From Deinococcales bacterium (lineage in GTDB: Bacteria; Deinococcota; Deinococci; Deinococcales; JAAFIG01), in assembly GCA_031414595.1 (NCBI GenBank), contig JANNVX010000098.1, positions 1-64,000 on the forward strand: a stretch of DNA of 64,000 nucleotides, read 5' to 3'. The notes beneath the pieces were generated by a model. The model worked only from the letters and a program-made list of their open reading frames with translations, was not told the DNA's origin and made no database searches. This document shows positions 2,380 to 52,893 of the stretch, in pieces. Each line of letters opens with the position of its first letter. Position 1 is the stretch's first letter. A program made the position numbers and the translations under genes.

Positions 2380-2393
2380 AAAAGGGGTTTCTT

Positions 2394-5115: not shown

Positions 5116-5125
5116 ACGGTTTATG

Positions 5126-5153
5126 TCTCGAGGTTAGAAGCCTAACCTCGAGA
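5126..5153. repeat. Perfect 12-bp inverted repeat TCTCGAGGTTAG-aagc-CTAACCTCGAGA
   Basis: Read directly. It lies just after the NAGPA-like stop, at the left edge of the AT-rich module. Confidence 0.85.
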
Positions 5154-5306
5154 ACCAATCTATTTGGTGATTGGGAAAAGCCAAACAAGATACCACTGCG
5201 AATTCGGGATGTTGACAGTGGTGCGGATGGCTTTTTGTATGTTCTGACCGATGAAAGTAATGAGTAATTGCTGCGTTTGACACCTTAATTCTCGAGCTAC
5301 TGCGCT

Positions 5307-10965: not shown

Positions 10966-11092
10966 ATATTTACTTGTGTAAAATTATAACAGGTCAATGT
11001 CGCTCTTTCGTCGCACATAGTATAAATTGCAATTTATTAATAAATTATATGCTATCAAGTAACTCATATTTTCTAGCAACATTTAGCTAGGT

Positions 11093-11635
11093 TTAGAACT
11101 CGAGTCCATCGTAAACTTGTGCGAGCGTTAAAGTTGCCCCAATACAAGGAATGTCAATTTCACCATTTTCTTCAAGAGTTTCTACTATCCAAACTTCACC
11201 TTGGCGTTTATAAACCACGACCAGCTTCGTGTGCTGCTCAACCAAAACATACCGTTCTACACTTGGTATTCGGGTATACTCACTGAGTTTTTTGTGACTG
11301 TCGGTATCGGCAGTGCTTGCCGAAATCACCTCGAGCAGAAAACAGGGGGCATCCTCGAGTCGAGGGTCATTGTTATCAAGGCAGTTAATCATAATGTCCG
11401 GGTAGCGATAACGGGTACTCGAGACATGCAACTGTATGGTTTTAGTCTGAAAGCGGCAGCCCTTGGCTCTGGTCAGTGGGGCTAAAGCAAGGGTGATGTT
11501 CAAAACAATTTCTTCATGGCGTTTACTTTCCCCTGCCATGGCGTGGAGTTCGCCATCCACATATTCATGGCGAATTTCAGCGTATTGTTCTTGTTCTAAG
11601 TATGTTTCTACGGTCTGGTTCTCGAGGACAGTCAT
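11093..11635 (-). CDS. Uma2 (DUF820) family endonuclease
   Basis: RHEYVDGELHAMAG, YRYPDIM, LLEVISAST and K..EY..IPS...YVLV. Leaderless TAGACT 6 nt upstream. Confidence 0.9.
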   Translation of the reverse strand: MTVLENQTVETYLEQEQYAEIRHEYVDGELHAMAGESKRHEEIVLNITLALAPLTRAKGCRFQTKTIQLHVSSTRYRYPDIMINCLDNNDPRLEDAPCFLLEVISASTADTDSHKKLSEYTRIPSVERYVLVEQHTKLVVVYKRQGEVWIVETLEENGEIDIPCIGATLTLAQVYDGLEF

Positions 11636-11665
11636 AGAATAAGTCTAGCAGAATTTTCAAACCAT

Positions 11666-11695
11666 AAAAAAGCGCGAAGATAAAACTCTTCGCGC
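11666..11695 (-). terminator. Intrinsic terminator of rpsA
   Basis: GCGCGAAGA/TCTTCGCGC stem followed by a T-run on the minus strand. Confidence 0.8.
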
Positions 11696-11710
11696 CTTTC
11701 TTTACAAAAT

Positions 11711-13366
11711 TTACTCGCCTGTCTTATCGTCTTTTTTGCCACCCAAGCCAAATTGGGCAAACAAGTCAGCATAGACATCACCAAGTTTAGTGGTGACTTT
11801 ACCGCCACCGGCATCGGCGTTGGCAAGGTTGCTCGAGTTGCTGCTGTAGTCGTAATCAAAATCACGCTTTTTGCCGCCACGGGCGCTGCCAAAGTTATTG
11901 GATTTATTGCGTTGTTGTTGTTGGTCTGGTGCGCTGCTTCCAACTGGGGCATTGTTTGCGCCAGGTAGAGCGCGTTTACGGCTTAAGCTGGCGCGTTGGT
12001 CCACTGGGTCTATGTTCAAGACCACAGCTTCTACTTCGTCGCCTTTTTTGAACAGTTCAGAAGCATTGGTGACGCGCTCATTGGCAAGTTCAGAAATGTG
12101 GATTAAGCCTTCAATGCCATCTTCAATTTCGATAAACACACCAAAATCGGTTAAGCCCGTGACCTTACCTTTGACTGGTGTCCCCGGTGGGTACTTGGCT
12201 GGTAAGGCACTCCAAGGGTCTGGGGTGGTTTGACGCATACCAAGGCTAATGCGGCGGTCTTTGGTATCCATGCGTAAGACAACAGCTTCTACTTCGTCGC
12301 CTTCTTTGAGGACTTCGTTTGGATGACGAACTCGTTTTGTCCAGCTAAGCTCAGAGACATGAATCAGTCCCTCGAGACCAGATTCAAGTTCAACAAAAGC
12401 ACCAAAATTGGTCAGGTTGGTGACTTTGCCGCTAACCCGTTGTCCAATCGTGAATTTTTCCATGGCGGCAGTCCACGGGTCTTGCATCAGGGCTTTCATG
12501 GATAAGTTAATGCGGTCACGGTCGTTGTCTACGTCCATGACTTGAACTTTAACGGCTTCGCCGAGTTTAACCACTTCTTTTGGGTGTCCAAAACGAGCAA
12601 AAGTCAGTTCTGAACGGTGAACCAAGCCGTCTACGCCACCCAAGGAAACAAACACACCAAAGTCGGTGATTTCAACAACTTTGCCCTCGAGAATGCTGCC
12701 AGGAGCAAGGCGTTCGATGGTCTCGAGTTTGGCTTTGTTCTTTTGTTCTTCGATGATCGCACGGCGTGAAATAATCACGCGGTTACGCTTACGGTTCAAT
12801 TCAATTAAACGAACTTCAAGTGGTTGATTGACAAATGGGGTCAGGTCGTTAATGCGGCGCACATCGAGTTGACTGGCGGGCAAGAATGCACGCACCCCTT
12901 CGATATTGGCAACCAAACCGCCCTTGACCTGTTCTTCGATATGCACCGTGATGCTGATTGCATCTTTTACGGCTTGCTCGAGTTTGCGCCAGCCACGGTC
13001 TTGCTCTGCCCGTTTTTTGCTGAGGATAATCACACCATTGGCAATGTCGCTGCGGACAACATAGGCATCTAACTTATCGCCTGGTTTGAATTGCTCTTGG
13101 GCTTGTTCTAAGGTTAAAGCATCTTCGGACAATTGATTGAGCGGAATGATTCCTTCAATTTTTGCACCGACATCTACGCTAACGCCTTCGCTGCCAACAA
13201 AGACCACTGTTCCGGCAACCACATCGCCTCGGTTCAGTTCTGAAACGCGATTTTCTTCTGAAGCAATCACGTCCTCCATGGTCATGGCTGGGTATTCTTC
13301 TGCTGCTTGTACTACTGGTATAATTGGGGCTGCTTCTGCAACCACGTTGTGAGCCGTGTCTTCCAT
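11711..13366 (-). CDS. rpsA: 30S ribosomal protein S1
   Basis: Five S1 repeats ([14 protein letters not shown]...[29 protein letters not shown]); GGAGG SD upstream. Confidence 0.96.
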
Positions 13367-36054: not shown

Positions 36055-36663
36055 TTACTCGAGACTGTTTAAGGATTCAACCAATTGATAGACCAAAGTC
36101 ACAGGATTATGTTCGGCGGGTGAATTGGAGACATGGTTCTGCTCGAGTTTTTTAGCGTTTCTAATGGCGATACTTTGTAAAGATAAAAGTGTTCCGTACA
36201 TATTGAGATCGTTTTTTTGATACTCAGTTCCAAGGTATTTGCTCAGTTCTTTTTTGTAACTTGTACGTGATGAAGGGGTATCGGAATACCGAAAATGCAA
36301 AAGATACCAAAGTTCAAATGCCTCGTTGCTGTAGGCAACCTTGATGTTTTTGGCTCGAGCTTTTTGAATAGCGGTATTAAATTGCTCAGATGTAAAACTA
36401 TCCTTATCAAATACGCACCAAGCCTCGTCATACACGGCATAATCATCTAATTTACACAATCTGGCAGCATATTCGACAATACTTTTGGTATTCATACCTG
36501 TCCCTAAAACCAGAAACTCTTCTACTCTTGCACCTCTGCGAAAAGCCTCAAAATAGTTTTTTTCTGTTTTTTCACCTTCACAAAAGATTAAATACGTTGT
36601 TCTTGTTGACTTAAAGGGTTCTTTGCGCCCTCGAGAAAATTTGGCTTTTGCGTGTCGAGCCAT
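36055..36663 (-). CDS. rloB: RloB family protein
   Basis: YLIFCEGEKTEKNYF, WCVFDKD, AYSNEAFELWYLLHF and NP.T.VY.LVE.L. Confidence 0.9.
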   Translation of the reverse strand: MARHAKAKFSRGRKEPFKSTRTTYLIFCEGEKTEKNYFEAFRRGARVEEFLVLGTGMNTKSIVEYAARLCKLDDYAVYDEAWCVFDKDSFTSEQFNTAIQKARAKNIKVAYSNEAFELWYLLHFRYSDTPSSRTSYKKELSKYLGTEYQKNDLNMYGTLLSLQSIAIRNAKKLEQNHVSNSPAEHNPVTLVYQLVESLNSLE

Positions 36664-36664
36664 A

Positions 36665-37951
36665 TCAGAACCTCAAATTCCCAAGGTATGGAATTGCTCC
36701 GTATTTACCAATCAGATAGTTTTTTTCGTACAACTCGTCGGTACGGACATTTTTACCTTGAGGCTTGAAATCATAAAGCGAATACATCTGGGTTGCGCCC
36801 AATTTATCTTTTTCGGCAAACCAAATTTGGTCACGCCTAAACAACTCTGAGGTCAGCAAATTCGTATCATGAGTTGTAAAAATAAGCTGTGAGCAATGTC
36901 CAGAACCAGTGTTCGAGTGAAACATTTTAATAAGTGCAGTTGTTAGTAAGGGGTGGAGTTTTGCGTCAAGTTCATCAATAATAAAAATCCTTTGATTTTC
37001 TAAGCCCTCGAGAAAAGCAGGAGCAAAATTAAATAATTTTTTTGTTCCTTCAGATTCATATTCGGATAAGTCAACCATCTCAGAACCAATTAAGTTACCA
37101 TCCGATGAAAATTTGTTGTGTTGCGTAATTGCCTGATAAATTGGTAAGTCTTTGACTCCCCCACGCATTTCACGTGGGAATCCACTAAAAAATATGCGAT
37201 CTCTGCGTTCTGAATCCAACCTTATTTCCACAGTAATATCCTGAATTGAAAGGTCTAATTCCTTTATAAAATCACTCACTTTTTTTCTTACTGCTTCATC
37301 TGTGATTGCTTGAGCGGCTAATAAACTTTGGGCTTGGTCAGCAGTGCCATCTAAAATTTGAATGCCCCTAAACCAATTGATAATGAGTCTCGAGATTTCT
37401 CCGTTAAATTGTGCAACTGTTGCCAAGAATAAGGCATTTTCTCGAGTCTTATCTGCTATATTTTCGCCTTCAGTGAATTTCTTTTTAATGTCGAATTTCA
37501 GTTCATTTCTCTCAAATAAGCAATTTTCTCTTGAAGCGCTTTTGACATAAAGCCATTCTTCAATCACTTTTTTGTTGGTAACGCTAAAGCCATAGCGATA
37601 AGTATTCTTGTCCGACGCAAAAAAAATAATTTCAAACGATGATGGTCTTTCCCCAAAACCTTCAATAAAACGAAATGTTGAGACATCAATGTTGTCGCCT
37701 ATTTGCATTGCCGAGGAACGCAAAACAAAATTTCGCATAAAACGAAGCGCTTGTACAAAATTGCTTTTTCCGCTTGCATTTGCGCCGTATAAAATAGCAG
37801 ATTTTAGTAATTTTGTGTTTGGTATCTCAAACTGATTTTCAATATCAACAGACATTTTTTTAGCCCGTTTTGAGGTGGGGGCTGCTTCCATTGAAAAATT
37901 GATTTCATTGGCAATGGAACGAAAATTACCAACAGTAAATTGAATGAGCAT
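36665..37951 (-). CDS. RloA-like AAA/ABC ATPase (AAA_21/AbiEii type)
   Basis: F.VGNFRSI, LYGANASGKSN, ESEGTKK, IDELDAKLHP, QLIFTTH, RRDQIWF and YLIGKYGAIP. Confidence 0.9.
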   Translation of the reverse strand: MLIQFTVGNFRSIANEINFSMEAAPTSKRAKKMSVDIENQFEIPNTKLLKSAILYGANASGKSNFVQALRFMRNFVLRSSAMQIGDNIDVSTFRFIEGFGERPSSFEIIFFASDKNTYRYGFSVTNKKVIEEWLYVKSASRENCLFERNELKFDIKKKFTEGENIADKTRENALFLATVAQFNGEISRLIINWFRGIQILDGTADQAQSLLAAQAITDEAVRKKVSDFIKELDLSIQDITVEIRLDSERRDRIFFSGFPREMRGGVKDLPIYQAITQHNKFSSDGNLIGSEMVDLSEYESEGTKKLFNFAPAFLEGLENQRIFIIDELDAKLHPLLTTALIKMFHSNTGSGHCSQLIFTTHDTNLLTSELFRRDQIWFAEKDKLGATQMYSLYDFKPQGKNVRTDELYEKNYLIGKYGAIPYLGNLRF

Positions 37952-38511: not shown

Positions 38512-39342
38512 ATGAGTGTCTTACCGCGTTTGAATCGTTTACTGGCTGCCGATGGCAAGTGCTTTGATGTGGCGATTGACCACGGTTTTTTTGGTGAGCT
38601 TAGTTTTTTGCCCAGTATCGAAAATATGCAAAAAGCGGTGCAAACGGTGGTTGGGGCTGCGCCAGATGTGGTGCAACTGAGCCTTGGTCAAGCGCGGCAT
38701 TTACAGCATATCAAAGGCTCAAAAAAACCTGCGCTGGCACTGCGAACCGATGTGGCTAATGTCTACGGCTCGAGTTTGCCGAGTCTGCTTTTTTCGGAAA
38801 TTATCGAATCGCCACTCGAGCAGGCGCTGCGTTTAGATGCAGCCTGTATTGTGGTGAATTTGTTGATGCTGCCAAATCAACCCGAGTTGCACCGTGCCTG
38901 TATCAAAAATATTTTGCGCTTAAAACCAGAAGCCGAACGTTTTGGAATGCCTCTGATGATTGAACCGCTTGTGATGCAGGACAACAGCTTAAAAGGTGGC
39001 TACATGGTGGATGGAACACTCGAGAAGATTCTGCCACTGGTGCGTCAGGCAGTTGAGCTTGGGGCGGACATCATCAAAGCCGACCCCTGCGATAACATCC
39101 TCGAGTATCATAAAGTGATTGAAATGGCTGGCGGGATTCCGGTCTTGGTGCGTGGTGGTGGAAAAGTCCCCGATACAGTCATTCTCGAGCGAACTTACGG
39201 GCTAATACAGCAAGGCGCTTCGGGGATTGTGTACGGGCGCAATGTGATTCAGCACCTAAATCCTGCGGGAATTACACGGGCGTTAATGGCTGTGGTGCAT
39301 GATGGGGCAACACCGAGCATGGCTTTGGAGATGATGGTGTGA
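38512..39342 (+). CDS. Class I aldolase (DhnA/LsrF family)
   Basis: VAIDHG, GMPLMIEP, AVELGADIIKA, PVLVRGG and GIVYGRNV. Confidence 0.88.
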   Translation: MSVLPRLNRLLAADGKCFDVAIDHGFFGELSFLPSIENMQKAVQTVVGAAPDVVQLSLGQARHLQHIKGSKKPALALRTDVANVYGSSLPSLLFSEIIESPLEQALRLDAACIVVNLLMLPNQPELHRACIKNILRLKPEAERFGMPLMIEPLVMQDNSLKGGYMVDGTLEKILPLVRQAVELGADIIKADPCDNILEYHKVIEMAGGIPVLVRGGGKVPDTVILERTYGLIQQGASGIVYGRNVIQHLNPAGITRALMAVVHDGATPSMALEMMV

Positions 39343-40469
39343 AAACCCTGCGTTTTGGAATTATCGGTTGTGGCTTAATGGGGCGCGAATTTGCTACGGC
39401 GGCGGCTCGTTGGGCGCATCTGCTAAATATGAAGGTTAAACCCGAAATCGTGGCGGTCTGCGACTCAAACCCAAACTTGATGGACTGGTTTAGTGATCAT
39501 TTTTCTGGTGTACAGCAAGTCAGCACCGACTACAAGGATTTACTCGAGAATCCAAATATAGATGCGATTTATTGTGCTGTGCCGCATAATCTGCACGGTG
39601 CGTTGTACCAGCAGATTATTAAAAGTGGTAAGCATTTATTAGGCGAAAAACCTTTTGGGATTGACCAAGCTGACAACACCGCGATTCTTGAAGCCATGCA
39701 AGCCAATCCAGATGTTTTGGTGCGTTGCTCGAGTGAGTTTGTGTTTTATCCAGCCGTACAAAAAATTGTTCAGTTGGCACAAGAAAACCGCTTTGGGCGG
39801 ATTCTCGAGGTCGAAGCTGGTTTTTGGCACAGTTCAGACCTTGACCCAAACAAAGCCATCAATTGGAAACGCATGGTTGCGATCAACGGCGAGTATGGTG
39901 TGATGGGCGACCTTGGTTTTCATGTGCTGCACCTTCCGGCGCGGCTTGGTTGGATTCCCAAAGATGTTCGAGCGGTTCTAAGTAACATCATCACCACGCG
40001 CCCAGACGCAAAAGGCAATACTGTACCCTGCGAGACTTGGGACAACGCCCATTTACTAACTCGAGTCGAAATGCCAGATTACGAATTTCCAATGCAGTTA
40101 AGCATGAAACGGATTGCGCCGGGTGAAACCAACACTTGGTTTATTCGGGTCATGGGAACAAATTTAAGTGCTGAATTTAGCACCAAACACCCAAAGACAC
40201 TGCGTACCTTACCGTATTCGACTGGTCAGGCTCAGGCTTGGCACGAACTCGATTTGGGTTACGAGGGTGCGTACCCGACAATCACTGGGCATATTTTTGA
40301 ATTTGGTTTTACCGACTCAATTTTACAAATGTGGGCGGCTTTTTGCGACGAAGCCATTGGGCAGACACCGCGTTTTCAGTGTGCTACACCCGAAGAAACC
40401 GCGCTCAGTCACCGGTTGTTCACGGCGGCGATTAAAAGCCAAAACACTGGGCAAACGGTTTTTTTATGA
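39339..40469 (+). CDS. Gfo/Idh/MocA family oxidoreductase
   Basis: FGIIGCGLMG, DAIYCAVPHNLH, GKHLLGEKP and GVMGDLGFH. Confidence 0.9.
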   Translation: MKTLRFGIIGCGLMGREFATAAARWAHLLNMKVKPEIVAVCDSNPNLMDWFSDHFSGVQQVSTDYKDLLENPNIDAIYCAVPHNLHGALYQQIIKSGKHLLGEKPFGIDQADNTAILEAMQANPDVLVRCSSEFVFYPAVQKIVQLAQENRFGRILEVEAGFWHSSDLDPNKAINWKRMVAINGEYGVMGDLGFHVLHLPARLGWIPKDVRAVLSNIITTRPDAKGNTVPCETWDNAHLLTRVEMPDYEFPMQLSMKRIAPGETNTWFIRVMGTNLSAEFSTKHPKTLRTLPYSTGQAQAWHELDLGYEGAYPTITGHIFEFGFTDSILQMWAAFCDEAIGQTPRFQCATPEETALSHRLFTAAIKSQNTGQTVFL

Positions 40470-41443
40470 TTCAAGTTATCAGCATGGGTATTGTGGTCGC
40501 CGATTGTGTGGCGCAACCCGTGGTACGTCCACCACAAGCGGGGCGGCTCGAGTTGGTACAAAACATTGGGCTGTTTTCGGGTGGTTCTGCCGCCAGCACA
40601 GGCTACAGTCTGGCTCGTTTTGGGATTCAGGCAGCGGTGATTGGCAGAGTTGGCAACGATGGTTTTGCCGATTTTTTGTTAAATGAAGCCAAGCGCCACG
40701 GCGCAGATTCAAGCGGCATGATTCGGGACAAGACCAGTGCAACCTCGGCAACTTTAGTGACCGTAGATTCCGAGGGCGAGCGTACTTTCCTGCATTCAAT
40801 CGGTGCAAATGCCAATCTAAGTGCTTTGGATGTGCCTCTCGAGAACCTAAAAAATCAAGGCGCAAGGCTTTTGCATCTGGCGGGTTTTTTTGCGCTTCCC
40901 AGTTTAGAAGGAACAGATGGCACTCCAACCCAAGAGCTATTTGCTCGAGCCACCGCATTAGGGTACATCACCTCATTAGATTGTGTTTGGGATGCCACAG
41001 GGCGTTGGCGACAACTGATGGCTAAAGTGCTGCCGCAAACCGATATTTTCTGCCCCAGTATTGACGAAGCCCGTGCAATTGTGGGCTTAGCTCAAAATAC
41101 CTCGCCGCTAGAAGTTGCCCAAGGTCTGTTTGAGCTTGGGGTGCGCCGCGTGGTGTCCTTAAAAATGGGTCAACAAGGCTCATTTATTTTAACTCGAGAT
41201 GGTCAAGCAGACCTGATTCCAATTGTTCCAACCACTGTTTTGGACGGTACTGGCTCTGGGGATGCGTTTATCGCTGGGTTTTTAGCCGCCTACTTACGCG
41301 GCGAGGACTGGCTGACTTGTGGGCGCATCGGCAATGTGGCAGGGGCAATGTGTGTGCGTGGCGTGGGAGCAATGACGGGTATGGGCGACTGGCAAGAAGC
41401 CCTCGAGATGGCAAGGTATTTTCAGACCAGTAACACGAGATAA
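40466..41443 (+). CDS. PfkB family carbohydrate kinase
   Basis: GGSAA, IGRVGNDGF, LKMGQQG and DGTGSGDAFIAG. Confidence 0.9.
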   Translation: MIQVISMGIVVADCVAQPVVRPPQAGRLELVQNIGLFSGGSAASTGYSLARFGIQAAVIGRVGNDGFADFLLNEAKRHGADSSGMIRDKTSATSATLVTVDSEGERTFLHSIGANANLSALDVPLENLKNQGARLLHLAGFFALPSLEGTDGTPTQELFARATALGYITSLDCVWDATGRWRQLMAKVLPQTDIFCPSIDEARAIVGLAQNTSPLEVAQGLFELGVRRVVSLKMGQQGSFILTRDGQADLIPIVPTTVLDGTGSGDAFIAGFLAAYLRGEDWLTCGRIGNVAGAMCVRGVGAMTGMGDWQEALEMARYFQTSNTR

Positions 41444-41464: not shown

Positions 41465-41809
41465 TCATGCTTTGACCTTCTTTTTGACTTGGCGATTGGC
41501 GGCAGCCACTGCGCCCATGATCCAAGGCTGTAGTGCCTCCCAATCCTCGAGGATGTCTTCTGGGGCGCGGTAATAACTCATGCTAATACTTTTGTGAGCG
41601 GTTTGGTAAGTGAACGGCTCGAGGTTGGCGTTTTTGAACATACCAATGTTTTCGGTGTCGGTTTTTAAGTACAGCACATCCTCGGCAATTAAACCAATCA
41701 TGCGGTCTTGGGTGTACACCCCCCAACCGCCGAACATGCTTTTGCAACGCGCTTTGATTGGGGTTAGGGTTTCTTCGATGAATTGCACAAAAGCGGGTTT
41801 GGTTTTCAT
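41465..41809 (-). CDS. TfoX/Sxy N-terminal domain protein
   Basis: KSMFGGWGVY...IGLIAEDVLYLK, PFTY and MSYY..P. Confidence 0.85.
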   Translation of the reverse strand: MKTKPAFVQFIEETLTPIKARCKSMFGGWGVYTQDRMIGLIAEDVLYLKTDTENIGMFKNANLEPFTYQTAHKSISMSYYRAPEDILEDWEALQPWIMGAVAAANRQVKKKVKA

Positions 41810-42367: not shown

Positions 42368-42434
42368 TTGAGTGATTCAAGTTACACTTCGAGTTTTTTT
42401 GCACTTAACCCTATGTTCAATAAGGAGCATCAGC

Positions 42435-44810
42435 ATGAAATTTCCATTTGTACTCATTCCATTACTCGCCATCACTTTGGTTGCCTGTCCGCTAACTATC
42501 GGTGATTTACCTGCTACACCCTCAAATTTTGTGGTCTCGAGTGGCACGGCTACAGGACTAAACTTATCGTGGAATTTGGTTTCTGGGGCAACCAGTTATG
42601 TCTTAGAGCGCGGTATTGCGGCGGGTGCTAAAACCCAGATTGCCACGCCAAATGCCACAACCAACACCTATGCCGATACTGGTTTAACCACTGGTACAAC
42701 CTATAGTTATGCCTTAAAAGCCGTCAATGCCAAAGGCTCGAGTCCAACCCCTGCGTTGGTGTCGGGTACGCCGCTTGGGGCGGGTACTGACCCAGACAGT
42801 GATGGTGTCTCGAGTACCGATGAATTGGCAGGTTGGGATGTGAAAATTTCTCAGGGTGGGGTGCAGCTCTCGACCCGTAAAGTCACCTCGAACCCTAGTA
42901 AGTCCGATACTGACGATGATGGCTTAAGCGACAATCAAGAACGCACCCGTTTCCTTGATCCAAAATCAGACGATACCGATGCAGACGGCTTAAAAGATGC
43001 TGATGAAGTCAACACTTGGGTCAGCAATGCCGCCGATGTAGACACGGATAAAGACTCCGAAGGCAATTCTGGACTGTTTGATGGCAATGAGCTTGCCACT
43101 TACGGCACTTCGCCAGTCTTGGCAGACACTGATGGTGATGGACTGAGCGACCACCAAGAAACGATTGTTTTGGCTTCTAAGCCATTGATTGCCAATACCC
43201 CACGTTTTGAATTGTCTTTTGCTTCTGCCCCAAGCATCAGCTTAAACATCGTTAATACCGCGACTCAAACTGTGGAAGCCACCAAATCCTCGAGTTTAAG
43301 TCTTGGTACAAGCTCGAGTAACAGCAGCACCGACACCAACACCGAACGTTTTAGTGCCGAGATTAGTGCCACAGTTGGGATCGAAGCCGAAGCCAGCTTA
43401 ACAGGAGGTGTGACCGCTTCTGCCAGCGTGACTGCTACGGCGGGTTATGGCACCGAAAATACCAAGAGTTTTACATCTGAATCCAGCCAAAATACCCAAA
43501 AAACCTCCGAGGAAGCCCAAACCTTGGGTTCTGCCACAGGCAAGCAGATTTCTGGGGCAAAAATGACGGTTGGTTTTAAGGTTTCTAACACAGGTAAAGC
43601 TGGATTTAAGTTGTCTGGCTTGAATATCTCGGTGCTGCGCCGTGATACCGAAAACCCAACCAAATTTATTTTAGTTGGCAACATGACCACCTTGGCAAAC
43701 CTGACTTTGGGAGTCAATGAAACTTCTGGTACATTAGCTGCGACTTACGATTTTACCAATTCTGATGATGCGATTGCGGTCATGCGAAACCCCGCCAATC
43801 TGCGTTTTGAACTGGCTGGCTACGATATTTTAGATGCTGATAACCGCAGCTTTAAGTTCCAGAACGACACCACCAACGGACAAACTGCTTATGTGGTGAT
43901 TGATTATGGCAACGGCAACACCGTCCGCCAGCGCGTAGCCACCAATGTTGAACGGGTCAACGGAAAAATTGTTGGTATTAAACTTGGCAAAGCCTTAAAA
44001 GACACCCTTGGTTTGACCTATACCACCTTGACCGACTCCAAGACCAACTTAAAAGTAATCAGTGGTATTAAAGAAGAAAAAACAGGTACGGTTGTGACCA
44101 GTAAAACAGTCGCCGACCCTAAGTCGGTCTGGGTCACAGTTGGATCAAATGACTTAAATATGAATGGGGTCAATGTAGACGATATTCTGATTAAAGCAGG
44201 TTCTGAAGTGCGTTTTATGCTGATTCGAGATGCAGATTCAGATGGTTTACTCGAGAGCGAAGAGTATTACTTAGGAACATCAGACACCGTAAAAGACTCC
44301 GATGCAGATGGCATAGATGACTTTAGCGAAGTGCGAATTGGTTGGTTTATTACGGTTAAAGGTGTCTCGAGACAAGTCTTCCCGAACCCCAAAGCCGTAG
44401 ACAGTGACGGCGACAAATTAACCGACAGCCAAGAAAAGACCAAAGGTACAAACCCGCTCAACCCAGATACCGATGGTGACAACATCACCGATGATTTGGA
44501 CACCGACTCAACTACGCCAGCTACAGCCCCAGTCATCAAGTCATTTGGTGCGGGGGTAATCAATATTCAAGCAAGGTTGGTTATCGCAGTTGCCAATATC
44601 ACCAACCCAAACCTAAAGAACACCGTCATTAACTGGGGTGATAGCAGTGCCAACACCGTCTTAACAGGCAATGCAGCCCTGGCTGTTCAAGTCACCCACA
44701 CTTACCCCCAAGGCGGTGTAGCCTACCAAATTACCATCACCACGTCGGATATTGGTACACCAGCAAAAACAGCTACTGCCAGCGCAATCGTTGGTATTCC
44801 ACTATTCTAG
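42435..44810 (+). CDS. Lipoprotein with FN3, Ca-binding DxDxDG repeats, protective-antigen/binary-toxin-B-like core and PKD-like C-terminus
   Basis: TAAGGAG SD; lipobox LVAC; FN3 (LSWN...YVLER...YADTGL...YSY); D.D.DG repeats; PLIANTP; Ser/Thr-rich alternating hairpin; KVSNTG; TAYVVIDYG...RQRVA; INWGD. Confidence 0.72.
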   Translation: MKFPFVLIPLLAITLVACPLTIGDLPATPSNFVVSSGTATGLNLSWNLVSGATSYVLERGIAAGAKTQIATPNATTNTYADTGLTTGTTYSYALKAVNAKGSSPTPALVSGTPLGAGTDPDSDGVSSTDELAGWDVKISQGGVQLSTRKVTSNPSKSDTDDDGLSDNQERTRFLDPKSDDTDADGLKDADEVNTWVSNAADVDTDKDSEGNSGLFDGNELATYGTSPVLADTDGDGLSDHQETIVLASKPLIANTPRFELSFASAPSISLNIVNTATQTVEATKSSSLSLGTSSSNSSTDTNTERFSAEISATVGIEAEASLTGGVTASASVTATAGYGTENTKSFTSESSQNTQKTSEEAQTLGSATGKQISGAKMTVGFKVSNTGKAGFKLSGLNISVLRRDTENPTKFILVGNMTTLANLTLGVNETSGTLAATYDFTNSDDAIAVMRNPANLRFELAGYDILDADNRSFKFQNDTTNGQTAYVVIDYGNGNTVRQRVATNVERVNGKIVGIKLGKALKDTLGLTYTTLTDSKTNLKVISGIKEEKTGTVVTSKTVADPKSVWVTVGSNDLNMNGVNVDDILIKAGSEVRFMLIRDADSDGLLESEEYYLGTSDTVKDSDADGIDDFSEVRIGWFITVKGVSRQVFPNPKAVDSDGDKLTDSQEKTKGTNPLNPDTDGDNITDDLDTDSTTPATAPVIKSFGAGVINIQARLVIAVANITNPNLKNTVINWGDSSANTVLTGNAALAVQVTHTYPQGGVAYQITITTSDIGTPAKTATASAIVGIPLF

Positions 44811-44828
44811 GCTGCTTTTTCCACAGAC

Positions 44829-44867
44829 AAAACACCCTGCACTGTTCTCGAGTGCAGGGTGTTTTTT
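44829..44867 (+). terminator. Intrinsic terminator with CTCGAG at the loop
   Basis: AAAACACCCTGCACT-gttctcg-AGTGCAGGGTGTTTT plus T-run. Confidence 0.85.
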
Positions 44868-44914
44868 ATTGGCTTGGCGCGTCTTAAAAATATGTGTTAG
44901 GCAACCATTATGCC

Positions 44915-44972
44915 GTGTGACGCACCCGTGTGACGCTTGTCTAACTCTGGTGTGACGCTCGTCAGGTAATCT
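44915..44972 (+). promoter_or_regulatory. GTGTGACGC direct repeats plus -10 box TAATCT
   Basis: Repeats at 44915, 44928, 44939 (GTCTAACTC) and 44950; TAATCT at 44967. Confidence 0.65.
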
Positions 44973-45026
44973 ACAAGCGTATCAATTATTTTTTCGGCAA
45001 ACGCCCTATAGTTAAGGAGAATCAGC

Positions 45027-48000
45027 ATGAAAAGTCTATTTAAGTTTCAGTTCTTACTCTTTCCGTTGTTGGCAGCCACTTTGGTCGCTTGCCCGCCTCC
45101 ACCCGTTGTTGGCGATTTGCCTGCTACACCCACCAACTTTGCAGTCTCGAGTACCACCGCCACCAGCATTAGTTTGGCATGGACAGCCGTCACTGGGGCA
45201 ACCAGTTATGTCTTAGAGCGCGGTATTGCGGCTGGTGCAAAAGCCCAGATTGCCACGCCAAGTGGCAGCACCTACACCGACTCTGGTTTGACCACTGGCA
45301 CAAATTATAGTTATGCCTTAAAAGCCGTCAATGCCAAAGGACCCAGTGCCACAGCCGCTTTGGTGTCTGGTGTGCCACTTGCACCGGGCGCAGACCCAGA
45401 TGGCGATGGGGTCTCGAGTGCCGACGAGTTGGCTGGTTGGGATGTGGTGATTTCAAGGGGTGGCACACAGCTTTCTACCCGTAAAGTCACTTCTGACCCG
45501 AGCAAAGCCGATACCGATAGCGATGGTCTGACTGACGGACAAGAACGCAGCCGATTTATAGACCCGAACACCGATGATACAGATGCTGACTTACTTAAAG
45601 ATGCCGATGAAGTGAACATTTGGGTCAGTAATCCAGCCGATGTGGATACCGATAATGACTCCACAGGTAATTCTGGATTGTTTGATGGGAACGAATTAGC
45701 CACCTATAAAACCTCACCGACTTTAGCTGACACAGACGGCGACTTTTTTAATGACTTTCAAGAAGCCATTACACTGGGTAATGAATTTAAGCCCTTGATT
45801 GCCAATACCCCACGTTTTGAACTTGAATTTGCTTCCGCCCCAAGCATCAGCTTAAATATCGTTACAACCGACGGTAGCGAAGCTGCGAAAACCAGATCTT
45901 CAAGCCTTGCACTTGGTACAACTAGCAGCAAAAGCAGCACCGACACCAATACCGAACGCTTTAGTGCAGAAGTCAGTGTGACTGTAGGTGTTGAAGCCAA
46001 AGCTGGTTTGGATGGAGGGGTGACCGCCTCCTCAAGTGTGACAGCCACCGCAGGGTACGGAACAGAAAATACCAAGAGTTTCACCAGCGAATCTGGTCGT
46101 TCAACCCAACAAACTGCCGAAGAAGCTCGCACTTTAAGTACAACCCAAGGGAAGCAAATCGGTGGTGGAACAATGACCGTTGGTTTTAAGGTCAAGAACA
46201 CAGGCGATATTACCTTTACCCTGACTAATCTGGCGATTTCGGTTTTGCGTCGTGACCCCAACGATTCAACCAAATACAAATTTGTTGGTTCAATGACCCC
46301 AAACTTGGGTTCTGGCACGCCTCCAAGCCTGACTTTAGGCAAAGGTGTGACTTCCGGTGCATTAGGCGCAACCCTATCTTTTACCGATGCCAGCGAATTA
46401 CTCGAGATTATGCGAAACCCAGCCGATTTGCGTTTTGAATTGGCAGGCTATGACTTAAAAGACGGCAACGACAAGAACTTTGCTTTCCAAAACGATTTTA
46501 CCAACGGGCAAACGGCTCAAATTGTGGTGGATTACGGCAATGGCAATGTCGTGCGTCAGCGCGTGGCAACCAATGTTGAACGGGTGGCTGGAACAATCGT
46601 TGGTGTGAAACTCGGTAAAGCCCTGAACGACATTCTGGGTTTACCCTTCACCACAATTGCCGATTCTGTAACAGGTTTTAAGGTCATTAACGGTATTACT
46701 GATAAAAAAGCAGGTCAGATGATTAGCTCCAAAACTGTGGCTGATCCTAAATCGCTTTGGGTTGTGATTGGCTCGAATGGCTTAGCCATGACTGGAGTCA
46801 ATGTAGACGATATTCTGGTTAAATCTGGAACAGAAGTTCGTTTAATGCTGGCAAGGGATGTTGATGGTGATAAGTTACTCGAGAACGAAGAGTATTTCTA
46901 TGAAACCTCGGATTCAAATCCAGATAGCGATGGCGACACGATTACTGATTTTGATGAAGTACGCACGGGTTGGAATGTCCAAGTGATTGGTAAGCCGGTC
47001 AAGAAAGTTTATGCCAATCCAAAAGCAGTGGATTCTGACACGGATAGCCTGACAGATTTACAAGAAAAAACCGCAGGCACAAATCCGCTCCTCAATGACA
47101 CTGACTCCGATGGTACATTGGATGCAGCCGATACAGACCCGCTCAATCCAGCGACTAATCCAATCATCACTGGTTTTGATGTGACTGTAGCTGGTAAAAC
47201 CGCCACACTGGTTGCCACGGTTGCCAATCCAAGCCTGAAAGATTCAGTCATTAACTGGGGTGACGGCACTGCTAACACCGTTTTAACAGGTAATCCAGCC
47301 AAAACCATTAGTGTGCAACATGTCTATGCCACAAGCGGTTTGTTTACTGTTACCCTAACTGCTTCAGACTCGAGCGCTCCAACGCCAAAAACAACAACAG
47401 TGACTAAGAATCTTGATATTAAAGACATTACCAGTAATTTACTGGCTTGGTTTAAGTTTAATGGTCCAACCAGCGGAACAACCATTAACGGTCCTGTTGT
47501 CAATACTGCCAACAGCAGTAGGAATGGCACAGCCGATGGCAGTGGTTGTGTCCTGACCGATACGGGAATTTTTAATCTGGTCAATACTGCCTACCGTTTT
47601 AACTTTAATGAGGGCGGCGCAGGATGCGGCAGTTCTCAGCATGGCAGTGTCACAGTACAAAACCTTGGTTTTTCCCAAGAATTTACCTTTAGTGCGTGGA
47701 TTAAACCCCAAGGCAACCTCGGAGATAACTGGATTATGGGTCAAGCTGATAACAACGGCAGTAATCCTTGGGCGCGTATGTTCATTGGTCAACTTGGCGA
47801 TCAAGCCAATAGTGGTACAGCCGTAGGCGTTAGTGGAAAAGTTTCTTTCTTACTACCACGTGCGAGCAACACCAGTATTCTAATCACTGACCCAACAACG
47901 ATTAGCCTAGATACTTGGTATCACTATGCGGTGACAGTATCAAAGTCTGGTGCAACAACCACAGTCAAACTGTACCGAAATGGTGGTCTGGTAAATACCG

Positions 48001-48188
48001 TCAGTAAAGACTTTACTTACACTGCTCCTAACACGACAGGTTCATTCTTGGTCGGCAATGGTCAGCAAGGCGCAGGTAGTGGCTCTGGAAGCAATATCTA
48101 TCGCGGAGTCATAGACAATTTGCGTGTCTATGGTCGAGCCTTAGCTGCTAACGAAGTGGTAGCCGTTAAAGACGCTCCAGAAAACTAA
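45027..48188 (+). CDS. Paralogous PA/binary-toxin-B-like lipoprotein with extra C-terminal LamG/ConA-like domain
   Basis: Co-linear with the upstream paralog (LVAC, FN3, DxDxDG, PLIANTPRFEL, NWGDG PKD), then LLAWFKFN...FTFSAWIKP...WYHYAVT...KLYRNG...GVIDNLRVYGRAL. Confidence 0.75.
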   Translation: MKSLFKFQFLLFPLLAATLVACPPPPVVGDLPATPTNFAVSSTTATSISLAWTAVTGATSYVLERGIAAGAKAQIATPSGSTYTDSGLTTGTNYSYALKAVNAKGPSATAALVSGVPLAPGADPDGDGVSSADELAGWDVVISRGGTQLSTRKVTSDPSKADTDSDGLTDGQERSRFIDPNTDDTDADLLKDADEVNIWVSNPADVDTDNDSTGNSGLFDGNELATYKTSPTLADTDGDFFNDFQEAITLGNEFKPLIANTPRFELEFASAPSISLNIVTTDGSEAAKTRSSSLALGTTSSKSSTDTNTERFSAEVSVTVGVEAKAGLDGGVTASSSVTATAGYGTENTKSFTSESGRSTQQTAEEARTLSTTQGKQIGGGTMTVGFKVKNTGDITFTLTNLAISVLRRDPNDSTKYKFVGSMTPNLGSGTPPSLTLGKGVTSGALGATLSFTDASELLEIMRNPADLRFELAGYDLKDGNDKNFAFQNDFTNGQTAQIVVDYGNGNVVRQRVATNVERVAGTIVGVKLGKALNDILGLPFTTIADSVTGFKVINGITDKKAGQMISSKTVADPKSLWVVIGSNGLAMTGVNVDDILVKSGTEVRLMLARDVDGDKLLENEEYFYETSDSNPDSDGDTITDFDEVRTGWNVQVIGKPVKKVYANPKAVDSDTDSLTDLQEKTAGTNPLLNDTDSDGTLDAADTDPLNPATNPIITGFDVTVAGKTATLVATVANPSLKDSVINWGDGTANTVLTGNPAKTISVQHVYATSGLFTVTLTASDSSAPTPKTTTVTKNLDIKDITSNLLAWFKFNGPTSGTTINGPVVNTANSSRNGTADGSGCVLTDTGIFNLVNTAYRFNFNEGGAGCGSSQHGSVTVQNLGFSQEFTFSAWIKPQGNLGDNWIMGQADNNGSNPWARMFIGQLGDQANSGTAVGVSGKVSFLLPRASNTSILITDPTTISLDTWYHYAVTVSKSGATTTVKLYRNGGLVNTVSKDFTYTAPNTTGSFLVGNGQQGAGSGSGSNIYRGVIDNLRVYGRALAANEVVAVKDAPEN

Positions 48189-50842: not shown

Positions 50843-52183
50843 ATGGAAAGTATTCGCTTTATAGATTTATTCGCTGGAATTGGTGGGATTCGCCTTGGCT
50901 TTGAGCAAGCAGCAAATGCCTTGGGCTTAAAGACTAAATGTGTACTGACCTCCGAAATCAAAGCCCCTGCTATCCAAACGTATCAACAAAATTTTCCTCA
51001 AGAATTTATCCAAGGCGATATTACGCAAATTGCGGCTGAAAACATTCCAGATTTTGATTTTTTACTGGCTGGGTTTCCATGTCAGCCGTTTAGCAGCGCA
51101 GGGCAACGCCTAGGATTCTTGGACACTCGAGGCACGCTGTTTTTTGAAATAGAGCGCATTCTTGAAGCCAAAAAACCAACGGGTTTTCTGCTCGAAAATG
51201 TTGAGGGATTGGTTGCCCATGACCAAGGGCGCACCCTAAAAACCATTCTGGCTGTTCTCGAGAAGCTAGGGTATCAGGTCACTTGGAAAGTTCTTAATGC
51301 TCTTGATTTTGGCATACCTCAAGAACGCAAACGCATTTTTATCCTCGGACATCAGCAACAGGCTGTTCCCCTCGAGTTTGAAGCGCTGCCATTAACCCGT
51401 CTTGGTGATTTACTCGAGACCAATTTGCCTGTACTCGATTCGGCATTTACCCGCAAGGTCTTTAGACATTACAAACCCGAAGATTTATTTGGTAAAAGCA
51501 TCAAAGATAAACGCGGCGGAGCGGACAATATCCACAGTTGGGACTTGGAACTCAAAGGTGATGTTTCGCCCCATCAAAAGCGCCTCCTCGAGACTTTGCT
51601 CCGAGAACGCCGTAAGCGCCACTGGGCAATTAAAAAAGGGATTACTTGGATGGATGGAATGCCTTTGACATGTGAAGAAATTTCAACTTTTTTCTATGCC
51701 CAAGGGTTATTTGACCAATTTAATCTTCAAGAATTACTCGATGACCTTGTACAAAAAGGTTATCTCGAGTTTGAGCATCCGAAAGACCTTGTAAAAATTG
51801 GTGCTGTACAAAAACGCCAACCGCGCACAGACTTAGAAAAAGGGTATAACATTGTGGTTGGTAAACTCAGTTTTGAAATCAATAAAATCCTTGACCCAAA
51901 TGGTATTTGTCCAACGCTTGTCGCCACCGACATGAGCCGAATTGCTGTTTTAGATACCAAAGGTTTAAGGCGCTTAACGATTAGGGAAGGACTGCGCTTG
52001 AATGGTTTCCCAGACTCTTACCAAATGACTGTTCCCGAAAACGTTAGCTGTGATTTACTTGGGAATTCTGTGGCTGTCCCAGTGGTCAAAGCCATTACAG
52101 AGCGTTTAATTTCGCCAATTCTGCGTATGCCTATCCAGCCGAGTCAATACTCGTTTGCAAATGTGCTGCATAGTTTTGACTGA
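50843..52183 (+). CDS. C5-cytosine DNA methyltransferase (M.NgoBV/M.NlaIV-like)
   Basis: DLFAGIGG, AGFPCQPFS, LLENVEGL, PQERKRI and LGNSV; variable region GKSIKDKRGG..NIHSWD. Confidence 0.92.
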   Translation: MESIRFIDLFAGIGGIRLGFEQAANALGLKTKCVLTSEIKAPAIQTYQQNFPQEFIQGDITQIAAENIPDFDFLLAGFPCQPFSSAGQRLGFLDTRGTLFFEIERILEAKKPTGFLLENVEGLVAHDQGRTLKTILAVLEKLGYQVTWKVLNALDFGIPQERKRIFILGHQQQAVPLEFEALPLTRLGDLLETNLPVLDSAFTRKVFRHYKPEDLFGKSIKDKRGGADNIHSWDLELKGDVSPHQKRLLETLLRERRKRHWAIKKGITWMDGMPLTCEEISTFFYAQGLFDQFNLQELLDDLVQKGYLEFEHPKDLVKIGAVQKRQPRTDLEKGYNIVVGKLSFEINKILDPNGICPTLVATDMSRIAVLDTKGLRRLTIREGLRLNGFPDSYQMTVPENVSCDLLGNSVAVPVVKAITERLISPILRMPIQPSQYSFANVLHSFD

Positions 52184-52829
52184 CTTCTAAAAACCACTTC
52201 TCGGCATAGTCTGAACCGTGCGTTTGCACCAACGTTTCTTTGATTGCTTCTAAAAAAACTTCTCTCGAGTTAAACGCTGGTGTCACTTTTTTGGCTTGTG
52301 AAAACCATAAAATCGGGCGCAAGTTGACTATTTTTTGCTGTTTTTCTTGTACACGAATTGGTCTTGTGGAACTTGTGCCGCTAATTTCCCAAATTTTCTT
52401 TAACCAAAAGTCAGTCACTTTGAGGACACCATCCTCGAGACTGTATGCAAAAATCAGGTAGTCGGCATTTAATCGGTAGGCGTTGGTTCGCAATGAACGT
52501 GTATAGGCATCAAAATTTGCAGTGTCAAAATTTGGACTTGCACTTGCATCAAAGACTTTAATCTCGAGTAAGTTTTCTTTATTTGAAGTTGGGTCAAGCA
52601 AAAAGTCAGGGAATTCTTGAGTATTGATTTTCTGACGATAAAAAATGTTTTTATTCTGCAACCAAAGTCCAAACCATTCCTGCAATAAGTTCCCGACCGA
52701 ACTTTTATCTTTGACCAAAAGCGTAATTCCAGCAAAAAAGACTTCGATACGACCTGTTTGGGCTTGTAGATTCTCGGATTTTAGCAAGTCAAAAATTTGT
52801 TGTGCAGTCAGATTTTGCGGCGAACTCAT
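52131..52829 (-). CDS. Type II restriction endonuclease, NgoBV-like
   Basis: VGNLLQEW, QEFPDF, LLEIKVF...SPNFD.ANF.AY, ADYLIFAY and WLKKIWEI; convergent with and overlapping the MTase. Confidence 0.8.
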   Translation of the reverse strand: MSSPQNLTAQQIFDLLKSENLQAQTGRIEVFFAGITLLVKDKSSVGNLLQEWFGLWLQNKNIFYRQKINTQEFPDFLLDPTSNKENLLEIKVFDASASPNFDTANFDAYTRSLRTNAYRLNADYLIFAYSLEDGVLKVTDFWLKKIWEISGTSSTRPIRVQEKQQKIVNLRPILWFSQAKKVTPAFNSREVFLEAIKETLVQTHGSDYAEKWFLEVSQNYAAHLQTSIDSAG

Positions 52830-52893
52830 GGCGTAGCTTAACACTGTGGCTCTATTTGTACTCGAGCCGCTAGATTTTGCGCCTCAAGTGTTC

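Follow-up and report, generated by a model that had tools for sequence, protein, structure and literature searches.

The B components PA, C2-II, Iota-b, CDTb and Vip1/Vpb1 make up the protective antigen (PA) family (Bacterial_Exotoxin_B, IPR003896; Pfam PF03495, PF17475 and PF17476), and PA-type pore formers are regarded as a family of the Bacillota. Vpb4 (Vip4) of Bacillus thuringiensis is described as a PA-family pore with neither an enzymatic A component nor a phi-clamp; no enzyme gene lies nearby, and it is proposed to kill through the pore alone (PMC13462110). BSAPs, the MACPF toxins of Bacteroidales, are lipoproteins of the cell surface that carry a receptor domain at the C terminus and are activated by cleavage of their N-terminal domain (PMC12853789; bioRxiv 10.64898/2026.08.05.742979). 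The CDCL lipoproteins form a large toxin-relative family in environmental bacteria. Many of them have a lipoprotein signal, and a short form without the C-terminal region adjoins a long form in one operon and a complex of both is reported (PMC7527733). Our literature search, limited in coverage, found no description of a lipoprotein branch of PA-type pore formers. Here, we analyzed such a candidate in a freshwater Deinococcales bacterium, using a 64,000-nucleotide stretch of its DNA (the window).

Gene pair and domain architecture

The candidate consists of two adjacent genes whose products are both predicted lipoproteins with 66% identity to each other (Table 1). Two co-linear paralogs of 791 and 1053 aa, each with an LVAC lipobox, had been called in the original prediction, and we recovered both open reading frames at those positions, with the lipobox at the end of each signal peptide. 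The open frame of gene 1 reaches back to GTG 42372; given the Shine-Dalgarno sequence, its start was set at ATG 42435. The domain plan proposed earlier (FN3, DxDxDG blocks, a PKD-like domain and, in the second protein, LamG) was confirmed as FN3/TSP3/core/TSP3/PKD with a terminal Laminin_G_3 domain, and FN3 indeed occupies the place where PA carries PA14. In gene 1, Pfam matched TSP3_bac as well as fn3; its matches in gene 2 were fn3, PKD and Laminin_G_3. PKD was scored in gene 2 only, and the PKD-like end is the most divergent part between the two proteins (43% identity). No dibasic or furin-type cleavage site was found in the Pro/Ser/Gly linker before residue 115 of gene 1, and a terminator scan of the 216-bp gap between the genes listed no terminator-like site.

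Table 1 Features of the gene pair (positions in the window; residues of the respective protein)
Feature	Position	Strand	Details
Shine-Dalgarno AAGGAG of gene 1	42422..42427	+	before ATG 42435; read from the sequence
Gene 1, short paralog	42435..44810	+	791 aa: FN3, TSP3, PA-like core, TSP3, PKD-like
Gene 1 signal peptide and lipobox LVAC	42435..42488	+	Cys18
Gene 1 FN3 domain	42507..42776	+	in place of the PA14 pro-domain of PA; Pfam fn3 E 1.4e-6, residues 28-104; PDB FN3 matches
Gene 1 TSP3/DxDxDG calcium block I	42777..43178	+	residues 115-248; aligns with PA domain 1' (hhalign)
Gene 1 core	43179..44228	+	residues 249-598; 249-527 share profile-level homology with PA domain 2 and the beginning of domain 3
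Gene 1 predicted amphipathic beta-hairpin	43344..43454	+	arms ~304-321 and ~326-340; turn LTGG 322-325
Gene 1 TSP3 block II	44229..44519	+	residues 599-695; Pfam TSP3_bac 656-677; invariant Asp columns
Gene 1 PKD-like C-terminal domain	44520..44807	+	residues 696-791
Gene 2, long paralog	45027..48188	+	1053 aa; plan of gene 1 plus LamG
Gene 2 signal peptide and lipobox LVAC	45027..45092	+	Cys22
Gene 2 PA-like core	45789..46856	+	68% identical to gene 1 core
Gene 2 amphipathic hairpin region	45954..46067	+	residues ~310-347
Gene 2 PKD domain	47181..47402	+	Pfam PKD E 6.3e-6, residues 719-792
Gene 2 LamG-like (Laminin_G_3) C-terminal domain	47631..48158	+	Pfam E 1.9e-19, residues 869-1044; PDB LamG-type matches
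Stem-loop	48195..48235	no strand	17-bp stem, T/A runs on either side; 3' of gene 2

The original prediction had looked to the Pfam Binary_toxB families for confirmation, which did not come. Binary_toxB_2 and Binary_toxB_3 (PF17475 and PF17476, for domains 2 and 3) matched neither of the two proteins at E up to 1, nor any of 78 relatives at E up to 0.5 or 0.01, and a six-frame search of the genome gave no match to PF17475. Binary_toxB (PF03495) reached just E 0.28 in gene 2, below the cut-off, with no match in gene 1. We dropped this model as evidence since it fires on TSP3-rich proteins: an unrelated TSP3-rich OmpA protein reaches 1e-14, so a match through the calcium domain is unspecific. The core (350 aa) was not recognised by any Pfam model, and no Pfam match to a MACPF or CDC domain was found in the two proteins. 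A phmmer search of gene 1 against PDB returned FN3 domains only. The ESM Atlas held no usable match for the core, and for a 98% identical protein (P0003) it returned only an FG-GAP/TSP3 cluster of the same family, at 0.81. The best NCBIfam matches, all very weak, were the gliding/cohesion lipoproteins CglD and MtsD, reached through TSP3 repeats.

Homology of the core to protective antigen

Alignment of 61 family members against 25 natural PA/binary-toxin-B proteins with hhalign gave a match of 98.3% probability (E 1.6e-14, 325 columns), pairing residues 115-527 of gene 1 with residues 202-562 of the PA precursor. This region spans domain 1', the whole of domain 2 and the beginning of domain 3. 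The match persisted for the core without the TSP3 block (97.7%, E 2.4e-12, 249 columns), for a deeper core alignment of 226 sequences (97.8%, E 9.4e-13) and, in a split test, for the part without the Ser/Thr-rich sequence on its own (90.8%, E 1.2e-6, 143 columns). Against the real score of 93.6, controls reached at most 20.0 (15 global shuffles), at most 25.8 (10 local column shuffles) and 36.8 (reversed alignment). A profile search of PDB matched PA chains (E 2.5e-6), C2-II (2.7e-5) and Vip1Ac (3.7e-5), and the family HMM scored 27/27 PA-family proteins at 7.8-26.8 bits, with ~204 unrelated ORFs scoring no higher than 9.4 bits. A PA-like protein of Balneolaceae forms a bridge between the core family and the PA family (91.9%). 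At the level of profile-profile comparison, these results establish residues 115-527 as a remote homolog of PA domain 1' (with a putative calcium site), of domain 2 and of the beginning of domain 3, which bears out the PA-like core proposed originally, and homology of the core to PA is in our judgement very probable.

Six motif pairings with PA had been proposed, and hhalign reproduced five of them: DPDSDG..ELAGWDV with DRDNDG..EVEGYTV, KPLIANTP with HPLVAAYP, the Ser/Thr-rich hairpin, FKVSNTGKA with IRYVNTGTA, and TAYVVIDYG/RQRVA/KLGKAL with TARIIF/ERRIAA/TLKEAL, the last falling in the first part of PA domain 3 (PA 488-533). The sixth, DDILIKAGSEVRFMLIRD with DKIKLNAKMNILIRD, was dropped, as the tail after residue 527 gives a probability of 1.2%. 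Given that these last 70 core residues (528-598) show no likeness to the remainder of PA domain 3, the oligomerisation domain is just half accounted for. Within domain 1', the alignment pairs the DxDxDGxxxxxE..G[WY]xV motif and the subsequent SxPxK..SDxE stretch. D119, D121, D123 and E130, which together with G133 are near-invariant in the family alignment, fall on PA D177, D179, D181 and E188, which are calcium ligands in PA.

The order of elements is that of PA: a putative calcium-binding DxDxDG domain, PL[IV]AxxP, a long Ser/Thr-rich amphipathic hairpin, an NTG strand and then the beginning of domain 3. The proteins differ from PA in carrying FN3 for PA14, lacking a furin-type site, having additional TSP3 repeats inserted in block I relative to domain 1' as well as a second TSP3 block, and ending in PKD and LamG instead of domain 4; a conserved phi-clamp and an A partner are missing, and Pfam thresholds are not reached.

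A predicted membrane hairpin without a conserved phi-clamp

The original prediction had placed a Ser/Thr-rich alternating segment at the site of the PA stem, and in the hhalign alignment an amphipathic hairpin does lie at the position of the PA 2beta2-2beta3 membrane hairpin. Column hydropathy over 226 sequences alternates at 306-322 and 326-338, and the strongest beta-amphipathic window falls inside the hairpin in 88 of these sequences (expected, 13%). The beta-amphipathic peak is modestly above within-protein shuffles, being reached by 13/200 and 16/200 of them. Of the 15 highest-ranked covarying pairs between the arms, 14 share one antiparallel register with its turn at 322-325, on a band picked after the data had been seen. 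L322 and V326 align with F313 and F314 at the tip of the PA hairpin. Conservation between the paralogs peaks in the hairpin (79%), as it does between orthologs, with zero nonsynonymous changes against an ortholog at dS 0.25, and its polar face is net negative (-3 in the query, -1.6 as the family mean). Judged from the aligned sequences, a beta-hairpin with strict alternation and covariation is retained across the family, and its tip is aligned with that of the PA hairpin.

F427 of PA, the phi-clamp, aligns to A436 or, in the 226-sequence alignment, to D439 beside F440. Among 61 family members, column 440 holds Ile in 25, Leu in 18, Val in 10 and Phe in 6, and no conserved phi-clamp Phe was found.

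Family distribution and gene neighbourhood

The core family comprises 834 clusters at 50% identity. Its distribution is patchy in Deinococcota (49/301 genomes, 20/55 genera), and it also occurs in records named Planctomycetes, Myxococcota and Gammaproteobacteria, not in Bacillota; source records call core proteins only "hypothetical", "LamG-like" or "fibronectin type III". Two archaeal contigs (L019, L020) were dropped from the family, having TSP3 repeats only and no core. A lipobox is present in 149/209 family proteins, which stem mostly from diderm phyla, in contrast to 0/25 among the soluble, secreted classical PA/binary-toxin-B proteins; calls among the 61 members numbered 39 by a PROSITE-like rule and 37 by another regex. 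The C-terminal domains, which had been predicted to be swappable, do differ across relatives, with propeller, beta-helix and lectin types. The core is under strong purifying selection (dN/dS 0.03), which acts on both paralogs.

The paralogs lie on one contig in three genomes, G001, G003 and G005, the second copy being cut by the contig end in G005. Paralog clusters also occur in G290 and on a metagenome contig with two or three homologs. In the 5.1 Mb of G013, a family relative with 50-53% identity, just one copy, of the long type, is present, and most other core-bearing genomes gave one match each. A related-locus search with a single protein returned 7 loci. As the original prediction held for this locus, no enzymatic A component was found among the neighbors, and a survey for cargo genes at 16 other loci likewise gave none; conserved partner or substrate genes were also absent across the surveyed loci. 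The ADP-ribosyltransferase family PF03496 was not found in the genome, which says little because the search gave no match in any control genome.

Discussion

We propose that both genes encode lipid-anchored, stand-alone relatives of pore-forming B components with variable C-terminal domains, a mechanism whose chances we consider evenly balanced. Pore formation by the two proteins is inferred from homology and the hairpin pattern only. After export, its lipid anchor would keep the protein on vesicles or the cell envelope, and its lipidated FN3 end may act like the PA pro-domain. A cut in the linker before residue 115 would free the protein and permit assembly of a ring, which would push the hairpins out into a beta-barrel in the target membrane, while target choice might fall to the PKD and LamG end, in whose place relatives have propeller, beta-helix or lectin domains. 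Given that a conserved phi-clamp and a partner enzyme are both missing, the weapon would be the pore alone, as proposed for Vpb4. It would serve in antagonism against grazers or neighboring microbes, in the manner of the BSAP and CDCL lipoprotein toxins.

Vpb4 shows that an A partner is not obligatory for the family (PMC13462110). Vpb4 and the present proteins share the lack of a nearby enzyme gene and of a canonical Phe clamp and a variable multi-domain C-terminal end; Vpb4, however, clearly belongs to the family and has a PA14 pro-domain, and it is a soluble secreted protein of Bacillota with a neutral lumen, unlike the net negative hairpin face and lipidation seen here. The likeness to BSAPs concerns the way of working only, namely a lipid anchor in a diderm host, a variable C-terminal receptor domain and assembly that begins once a protease has taken off the N-terminal domain, the last two points being conjectural for the Deinococcales proteins. 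The MACPF fold is unrelated to the PA-like core, and for BSAPs a surface export signal and targets are known. CDCL lipoproteins resemble the present pair in having short and long forms side by side and differ in their CDC/MACPF fold.

Domains such as FN3, TSP3, PKD and LamG, and the TIG, Big_5, FG-GAP, RCC1 and beta-helix domains of relatives, are usual in adhesins; the lipid anchor suits a cell-surface protein, no Pfam toxin domain appeared at threshold, and CglD and MtsD were matched, very weakly, through TSP3 repeats. The proteins might be poreless surface adhesins or matrix proteins in which the PA-like core is a rigid calcium-stabilised module between Ig-like and lectin-like domains. We consider this unlikely, because all relatives of the core with a solved structure are beta-pore-forming toxins and the most conserved part of the proteins is a hairpin with membrane-type alternation throughout 226 sequences, which a mere spacer would not require. 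An oligomer that places its hairpins in the producer's own outer membrane as a channel for secretion or uptake, in the way of other barrels built from lipoproteins, would agree with the frequent lipobox in mostly diderm phyla and with the negative polar face, as in a selective channel. The patchy distribution, the lack of conserved partner or substrate genes and outward domains so variable that they suit target recognition better than housekeeping make such a role improbable.

Homology to translocating B components, and a Phe (F440, in DFT or SFT) near the F427 alignment site in the window proteins and four close relatives, would fit a classical B component with its enzymatic partner encoded elsewhere in the genome. 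This is very improbable given that the column is Ile, Leu or Val in 53/61 members, that none of the 17 loci has an A-like enzyme alongside and, weakly, that PF03496 was not found. The close spacing of the two genes on the same strand, their recurrence as pairs and clusters, and purifying selection on both copies would suit a two-component pore in which the long form binds the target and the short form fills the ring, like short and long CDCL lipoproteins. Homo-oligomers, however, must suffice in the family because G013 has a single copy and most other genomes one match, and we regard the two-part arrangement as doubtful. Equally doubtful is a broader reading, in which the proteins found a large, unrecognised lipoprotein branch of the PA superfamily in diderm environmental bacteria that serves as a two-part weapon in this genus, with the LamG-bearing long subunit docking on a target cell and short ones completing a hetero-oligomeric beta-barrel after the lipidated FN3 pro-domain is cut. 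If it were true, microbes would have fought with PA-type pores widely and since ancient times, and such pores would be no specialty of pathogens among the Bacillota.

Returning to the stand-alone reading, the core occurs in phyla other than the Bacillota; if its members are pores, the superfamily would be far more ancient and more broadly spread than assumed, and the larger share of it would be lipid-anchored and without an A partner. The swappable end domains would then form a natural library of targeting modules, and the core would join MACPF and CDC as the third fold used by lipoprotein pore-forming toxins in diderm bacteria.

The Ser/Thr-rich alternating insertion hairpin is also shared with aerolysin and ETX/MTX2 toxins, in a likeness of ~70-100 residues that is not significant. 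At this segment, a profile search of PDB gave weak matches to natterin-like protein (E 0.033), Cry23 (0.07) and epsilon toxin (0.09), and Pfam Aerolysin or ETX_MTX2 appeared in 3/39 relatives at a sub-threshold E of 0.014-0.05, limited to the hairpin. The PA alignment spans 249-325 columns at E 1e-12 to 1e-14. As to gene order, a solute-binding-protein gene lies between the two paralogs in G003, and the stem-loop behind gene 2 is, from its sequence, likely a two-way terminator.

Genetic organization of the pair

The reading frame of gene 1 is open from a GTG at 42372, and the ATG start taken in the original prediction (791 aa) was backed by a Shine-Dalgarno sequence ahead of it. No terminator-like site was found by scanning the 216-bp gap separating gene 1 and gene 2. 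Each encoded protein carries an N-terminal signal peptide that ends in LVAC, and the two are 66% identical to each other. Pfam recognized fn3 and TSP3_bac in the gene 1 protein and fn3, PKD and Laminin_G_3 in the gene 2 protein, while the core (about residues 249-598) matched no family in Pfam or NCBIfam. The copy number is two, with no others in the 4.49-Mb assembly (94% complete), a Deinococcales genome reconstructed from a metagenome. DNA of the window is present in freshwater sediment sequencing runs, which may be its source.

Features of the gene pair, its surroundings and a further pore-former relative in the same genome (window positions unless stated otherwise)
Feature	Position	Size or strand	Remark
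AbiL-type pair	36055-37951	- strand	abortive infection
DeoC-type aldolase, GFO/IDH/MocA oxidoreductase, PfkB kinase	38512-41443		sugar or inositol catabolism cluster, upstream of pair
TfoX_N gene	41465-41809		upstream of pair
Shine-Dalgarno AAGGAG	42422-42427		ahead of ATG 42435; read from sequence
Gene 1	42435-44810	791 aa, + strand	short paralog
Gene 2	45027-48188	1053 aa, + strand	long paralog
Stem-loop	48195-48235	17-bp	after gene 2; terminator scan
Type II restriction-modification pair	50843-52844		methyltransferase and endonuclease
PF01289 domain protein	G000:C71:12603-13478 (locus L043, ORF 910-3318, - strand)		domain behind N-terminal repeats

Relation of the core to protective antigen

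A likeness to anthrax protective antigen (PA) had been proposed for the core from sequence motifs. The curated models did not register it: Binary_toxB_2 and Binary_toxB_3 gave no match, and Binary_toxB reached only E 0.28, on gene 2. The last of these, a calcium-domain model, is unspecific, because it also matches a TSP3-rich OmpA protein at 1e-14. By curated-model criteria, the two proteins are not PA-family members.

Profile comparison gave a different result. A profile of 61 family members searched against PDB matched PA chains (E 2.5e-6), C2-II (2.7e-5) and Vip1Ac (3.7e-5), with a second matching stretch from PLIAxxP into domain 2. The family was then aligned by hhalign with 25 natural relatives of pagA, with a probability of 98.3% and E 1.6e-14 over 325 columns. 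This alignment pairs query residues 115-527 with PA precursor 202-562 (mature 173-533), so that domain 1' and the whole of domain 2 are covered, and domain 3 over its initial 45 residues. With the TSP3 block removed, the core still gave 97.7%, E 2.4e-12 and a score of 93.6 over 249 columns, against maxima of 20.0 for global column shuffles (n=15) and 25.8 for local ones (n=10), and 36.8 for the reversed alignment. A 226-sequence core alignment also matched the PA family (97.8%, E 9.4e-13), its 182 columns all lying past the hairpin. In split tests, the segment free of the Ser/Thr-rich part reached 90.8% by itself (E 1.2e-6, 143 columns), and the N-terminal segment 93.5%, but over just 15 columns around PLIAxxP.

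An HMM of the family core scored all 27 PA-family proteins at 7.8-26.8 bits, and about 204 unrelated ORFs at no more than 9.4 bits, the second at 1.6. A PA-like protein of Balneolaceae (Pfam Binary_toxB 1e-17, Binary_toxB_2 0.0027) matched the family profile at 91.9% and serves, by its profile matches, as a bridge between the family and PA proteins; a second distant PA-like protein, P0173, reached only 28%. Profile-profile statistics with shuffle and reversal controls thus upheld the proposed homology, and show at the sequence level that the core is homologous to the pore-forming module of PA. Five of the six motif pairings first drawn with PA stood. The sixth, in the tail, fell, since residues 520-600 of gene 1 have no significant likeness to the remainder of PA domain 3 (1.2%).

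A predicted amphipathic hairpin

The strongest beta-amphipathic window of each protein falls at the predicted hairpin (residues 303-322 in gene 1, 310-330 in gene 2). Within single proteins this peak is only modestly unusual, as 13 and 16 shuffles out of 200 reach it. Stronger evidence comes from the family. In 226 homologues the column means of hydropathy show strict alternation over 306-322 and 326-338, and the hairpin holds the top amphipathic window in 88 sequences, compared with 13% expected by length. Covariation (MI-APC, effective number 198) placed three arm-to-arm pairs within the top 40 of all pairs. Among the top 15 arm-to-arm pairs, 14 satisfy i+j = 642-650, which corresponds to a single antiparallel register turning at 322-325; this band holds 177 of the 483 possible pairs (hypergeometric P 5.7e-6, for a band picked post hoc and non-independent pairs). 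Independently of covariation, hhalign aligned L322 and V326 with PA F313 and F314, which form the tip of the loop that inserts into the membrane. The net charge of the polar face is -3 in the query protein and averages -1.6 in the family. These alignments show a conserved, covarying, predicted amphipathic hairpin at the position matching that of PA.

Differences from the classical PA family

A lipobox is found in 39 of 61 aligned family members and in 149 of 209 Met-starting family proteins, but in none of 25 classical PA-family proteins. Where the latter begin with PA14, the proteins here carry FN3 and their relatives TIG, Big_5, CarboxypepD_reg or chitobiase-type domains; in place of a furin-type activation site there is a linker without a dibasic site. 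The classical domain 4 gives way in this family to PKD, LamG, FG-GAP or RCC1 propellers, beta-helix, ricin lectin or Laminin_B. The 61 aligned members do not conserve the phi-clamp Phe. PA F427 aligns to A436 in one alignment and to D439, next to F440, in another, and column 440 is mostly Ile (25), Leu (18) or Val (10); the six sequences with Phe there are the two proteins of the pair and four close relatives. P0173 (Binary_toxB_3 E 1e-4), whose start looks PA14-like by eye, has an N-terminus resembling a lipobox (LAGC), so that lipidation may also exist in proteins close to the classical PA family.

Distribution and constraint

A core-only search of 1.84 billion representatives returned 834 clusters at E <=1e-3, 415 at 1e-10 and 33 at 1e-30, with Deinococcus radiopugnans, D. 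humi and MAGs of Planctomycetes, Myxococcota/Myxococcales and Gammaproteobacteria among the named sources. A homologue is also present in Deinococcus sp. D7000 (HLB42_18105). Only one plasmid record carried the core. It was present in 49 of 301 sampled Deinococcota genomes (40 of 260 of good quality) and in 20 of 55 genera. Of seven further genomes from the same genus, five hold near-full-length copies, G007 has FN3-level matches only and G002 has none. Compared with a 96%-identical ortholog, the overall dN/dS was 0.08, with values of 0.03 for the core, 0.16 for FN3 and 0.20 for PKD, and the hairpin had zero nonsynonymous changes at dS 0.25. Identity between the paralogs is highest in the hairpin half of the core (79%) and lowest in PKD (43%).

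Gene neighborhoods and alternative readings

No enzyme partner adjoins the pair in the window, where the neighbors comprise genes for sugar catabolism, TfoX_N and DUF2785 genes, and unknowns; the catabolic cluster and TfoX_N gene are not conserved beside homologues elsewhere. No enzyme partner was found at 16 further loci either (L014, L017, which is the same place as L028, thirteen other genome regions, and one plasmid, that of Deinococcus sp. D7000). A B component whose A partner is encoded far away is a very improbable reading. Hardly more credit goes to a channel in the producer's own envelope. An adhesin that forms no pore, to be weighed against the hairpin and the core homology, is the least improbable of the three, though still unlikely. 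Three PA hallmarks are missing, namely PA14, the phi-clamp and the A partner. Homology of the core to a PA-type pore former is supported by the controlled profile statistics. The pair is most aptly classed as a new lipoprotein variant, distantly related to the PA-type pore formers and itself a putative pore former.

The sole recurrent neighbor, in 5 of 16 clustered regions, was a BTAD-STAND NTPase-TPR (AfsR/SARP-like) regulator of about 850-1000 aa, often divergent. In several Deinococcota genomes a gene of this kind adjoins the homologue (L036, L037, L038, L039, L041 and L042, CP058535.1 265482-268397), and a TPR protein of similar size on the D7000 plasmid looks like the same regulator; no such gene adjoins the pair in the window. 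Another arrangement is seen in the same genus at L014 (JAYWGM010000066.1, 3423-10373), where a solute-binding-protein gene (SBP_bac_3) lies between a 1140-aa long paralog and the following 793-aa gene 1 ortholog. In a distant genus, L044 (G290:C13) has two core-bearing genes less than 5 kb apart (4144-7186 and 8281-12176), each followed by a short TSP3-only ORF that may be a frameshift split of a longer gene.

Proposed mode of action

In the mechanism judged likeliest, the proteins, as PA-type pore formers, would be exported and lipidated, and the lipidated FN3 end would take the role of the pro-domain, whose removal is critical for oligomerization in the PA family according to the introduction of the Vpb4 paper (PMC13462110). 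A cut in the Pro/Ser/Gly linker would free the protein and permit ring assembly, the C-terminal PKD and LamG end would bind the target, and the hairpins would build the barrel. With phi-clamp and A partner both lacking, damage would come from the pore alone, as described for Vpb4Aa2 (PMC13462110). For the BSAP MACPF toxins, a lipid anchor, a variable receptor domain at the C-terminus and activation by a protease are established (PMC12853789; bioRxiv 10.64898/2026.08.05.742979). Lipoproteins make up a large share of the CDC-like proteins, and short forms without the C-terminal region share operons with long forms (PMC7527733). The pair of 791 and 1053 aa closely parallels this arrangement. The genome of the window also codes for a secreted protein of 802 aa whose thiol-cytolysin (CDC-like) domain (PF01289, 112 bits, above cut-off) marks it as a second pore-former relative in the organism.

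Other systems in the window

GC content in the window is lowest (0.375 vs about 0.47) where the AbiL-type pair lies (AbiLi E 5.7e-99, AbiLii E 2.9e-29; Pfam AAA_21 and RloB), which suggests a recently acquired defense islet. The restriction-modification genes encode an NgoBV-type endonuclease (E 8.8e-51) and a C-5 cytosine methyltransferase (Pfam E 5.9e-87), and they converge and overlap.
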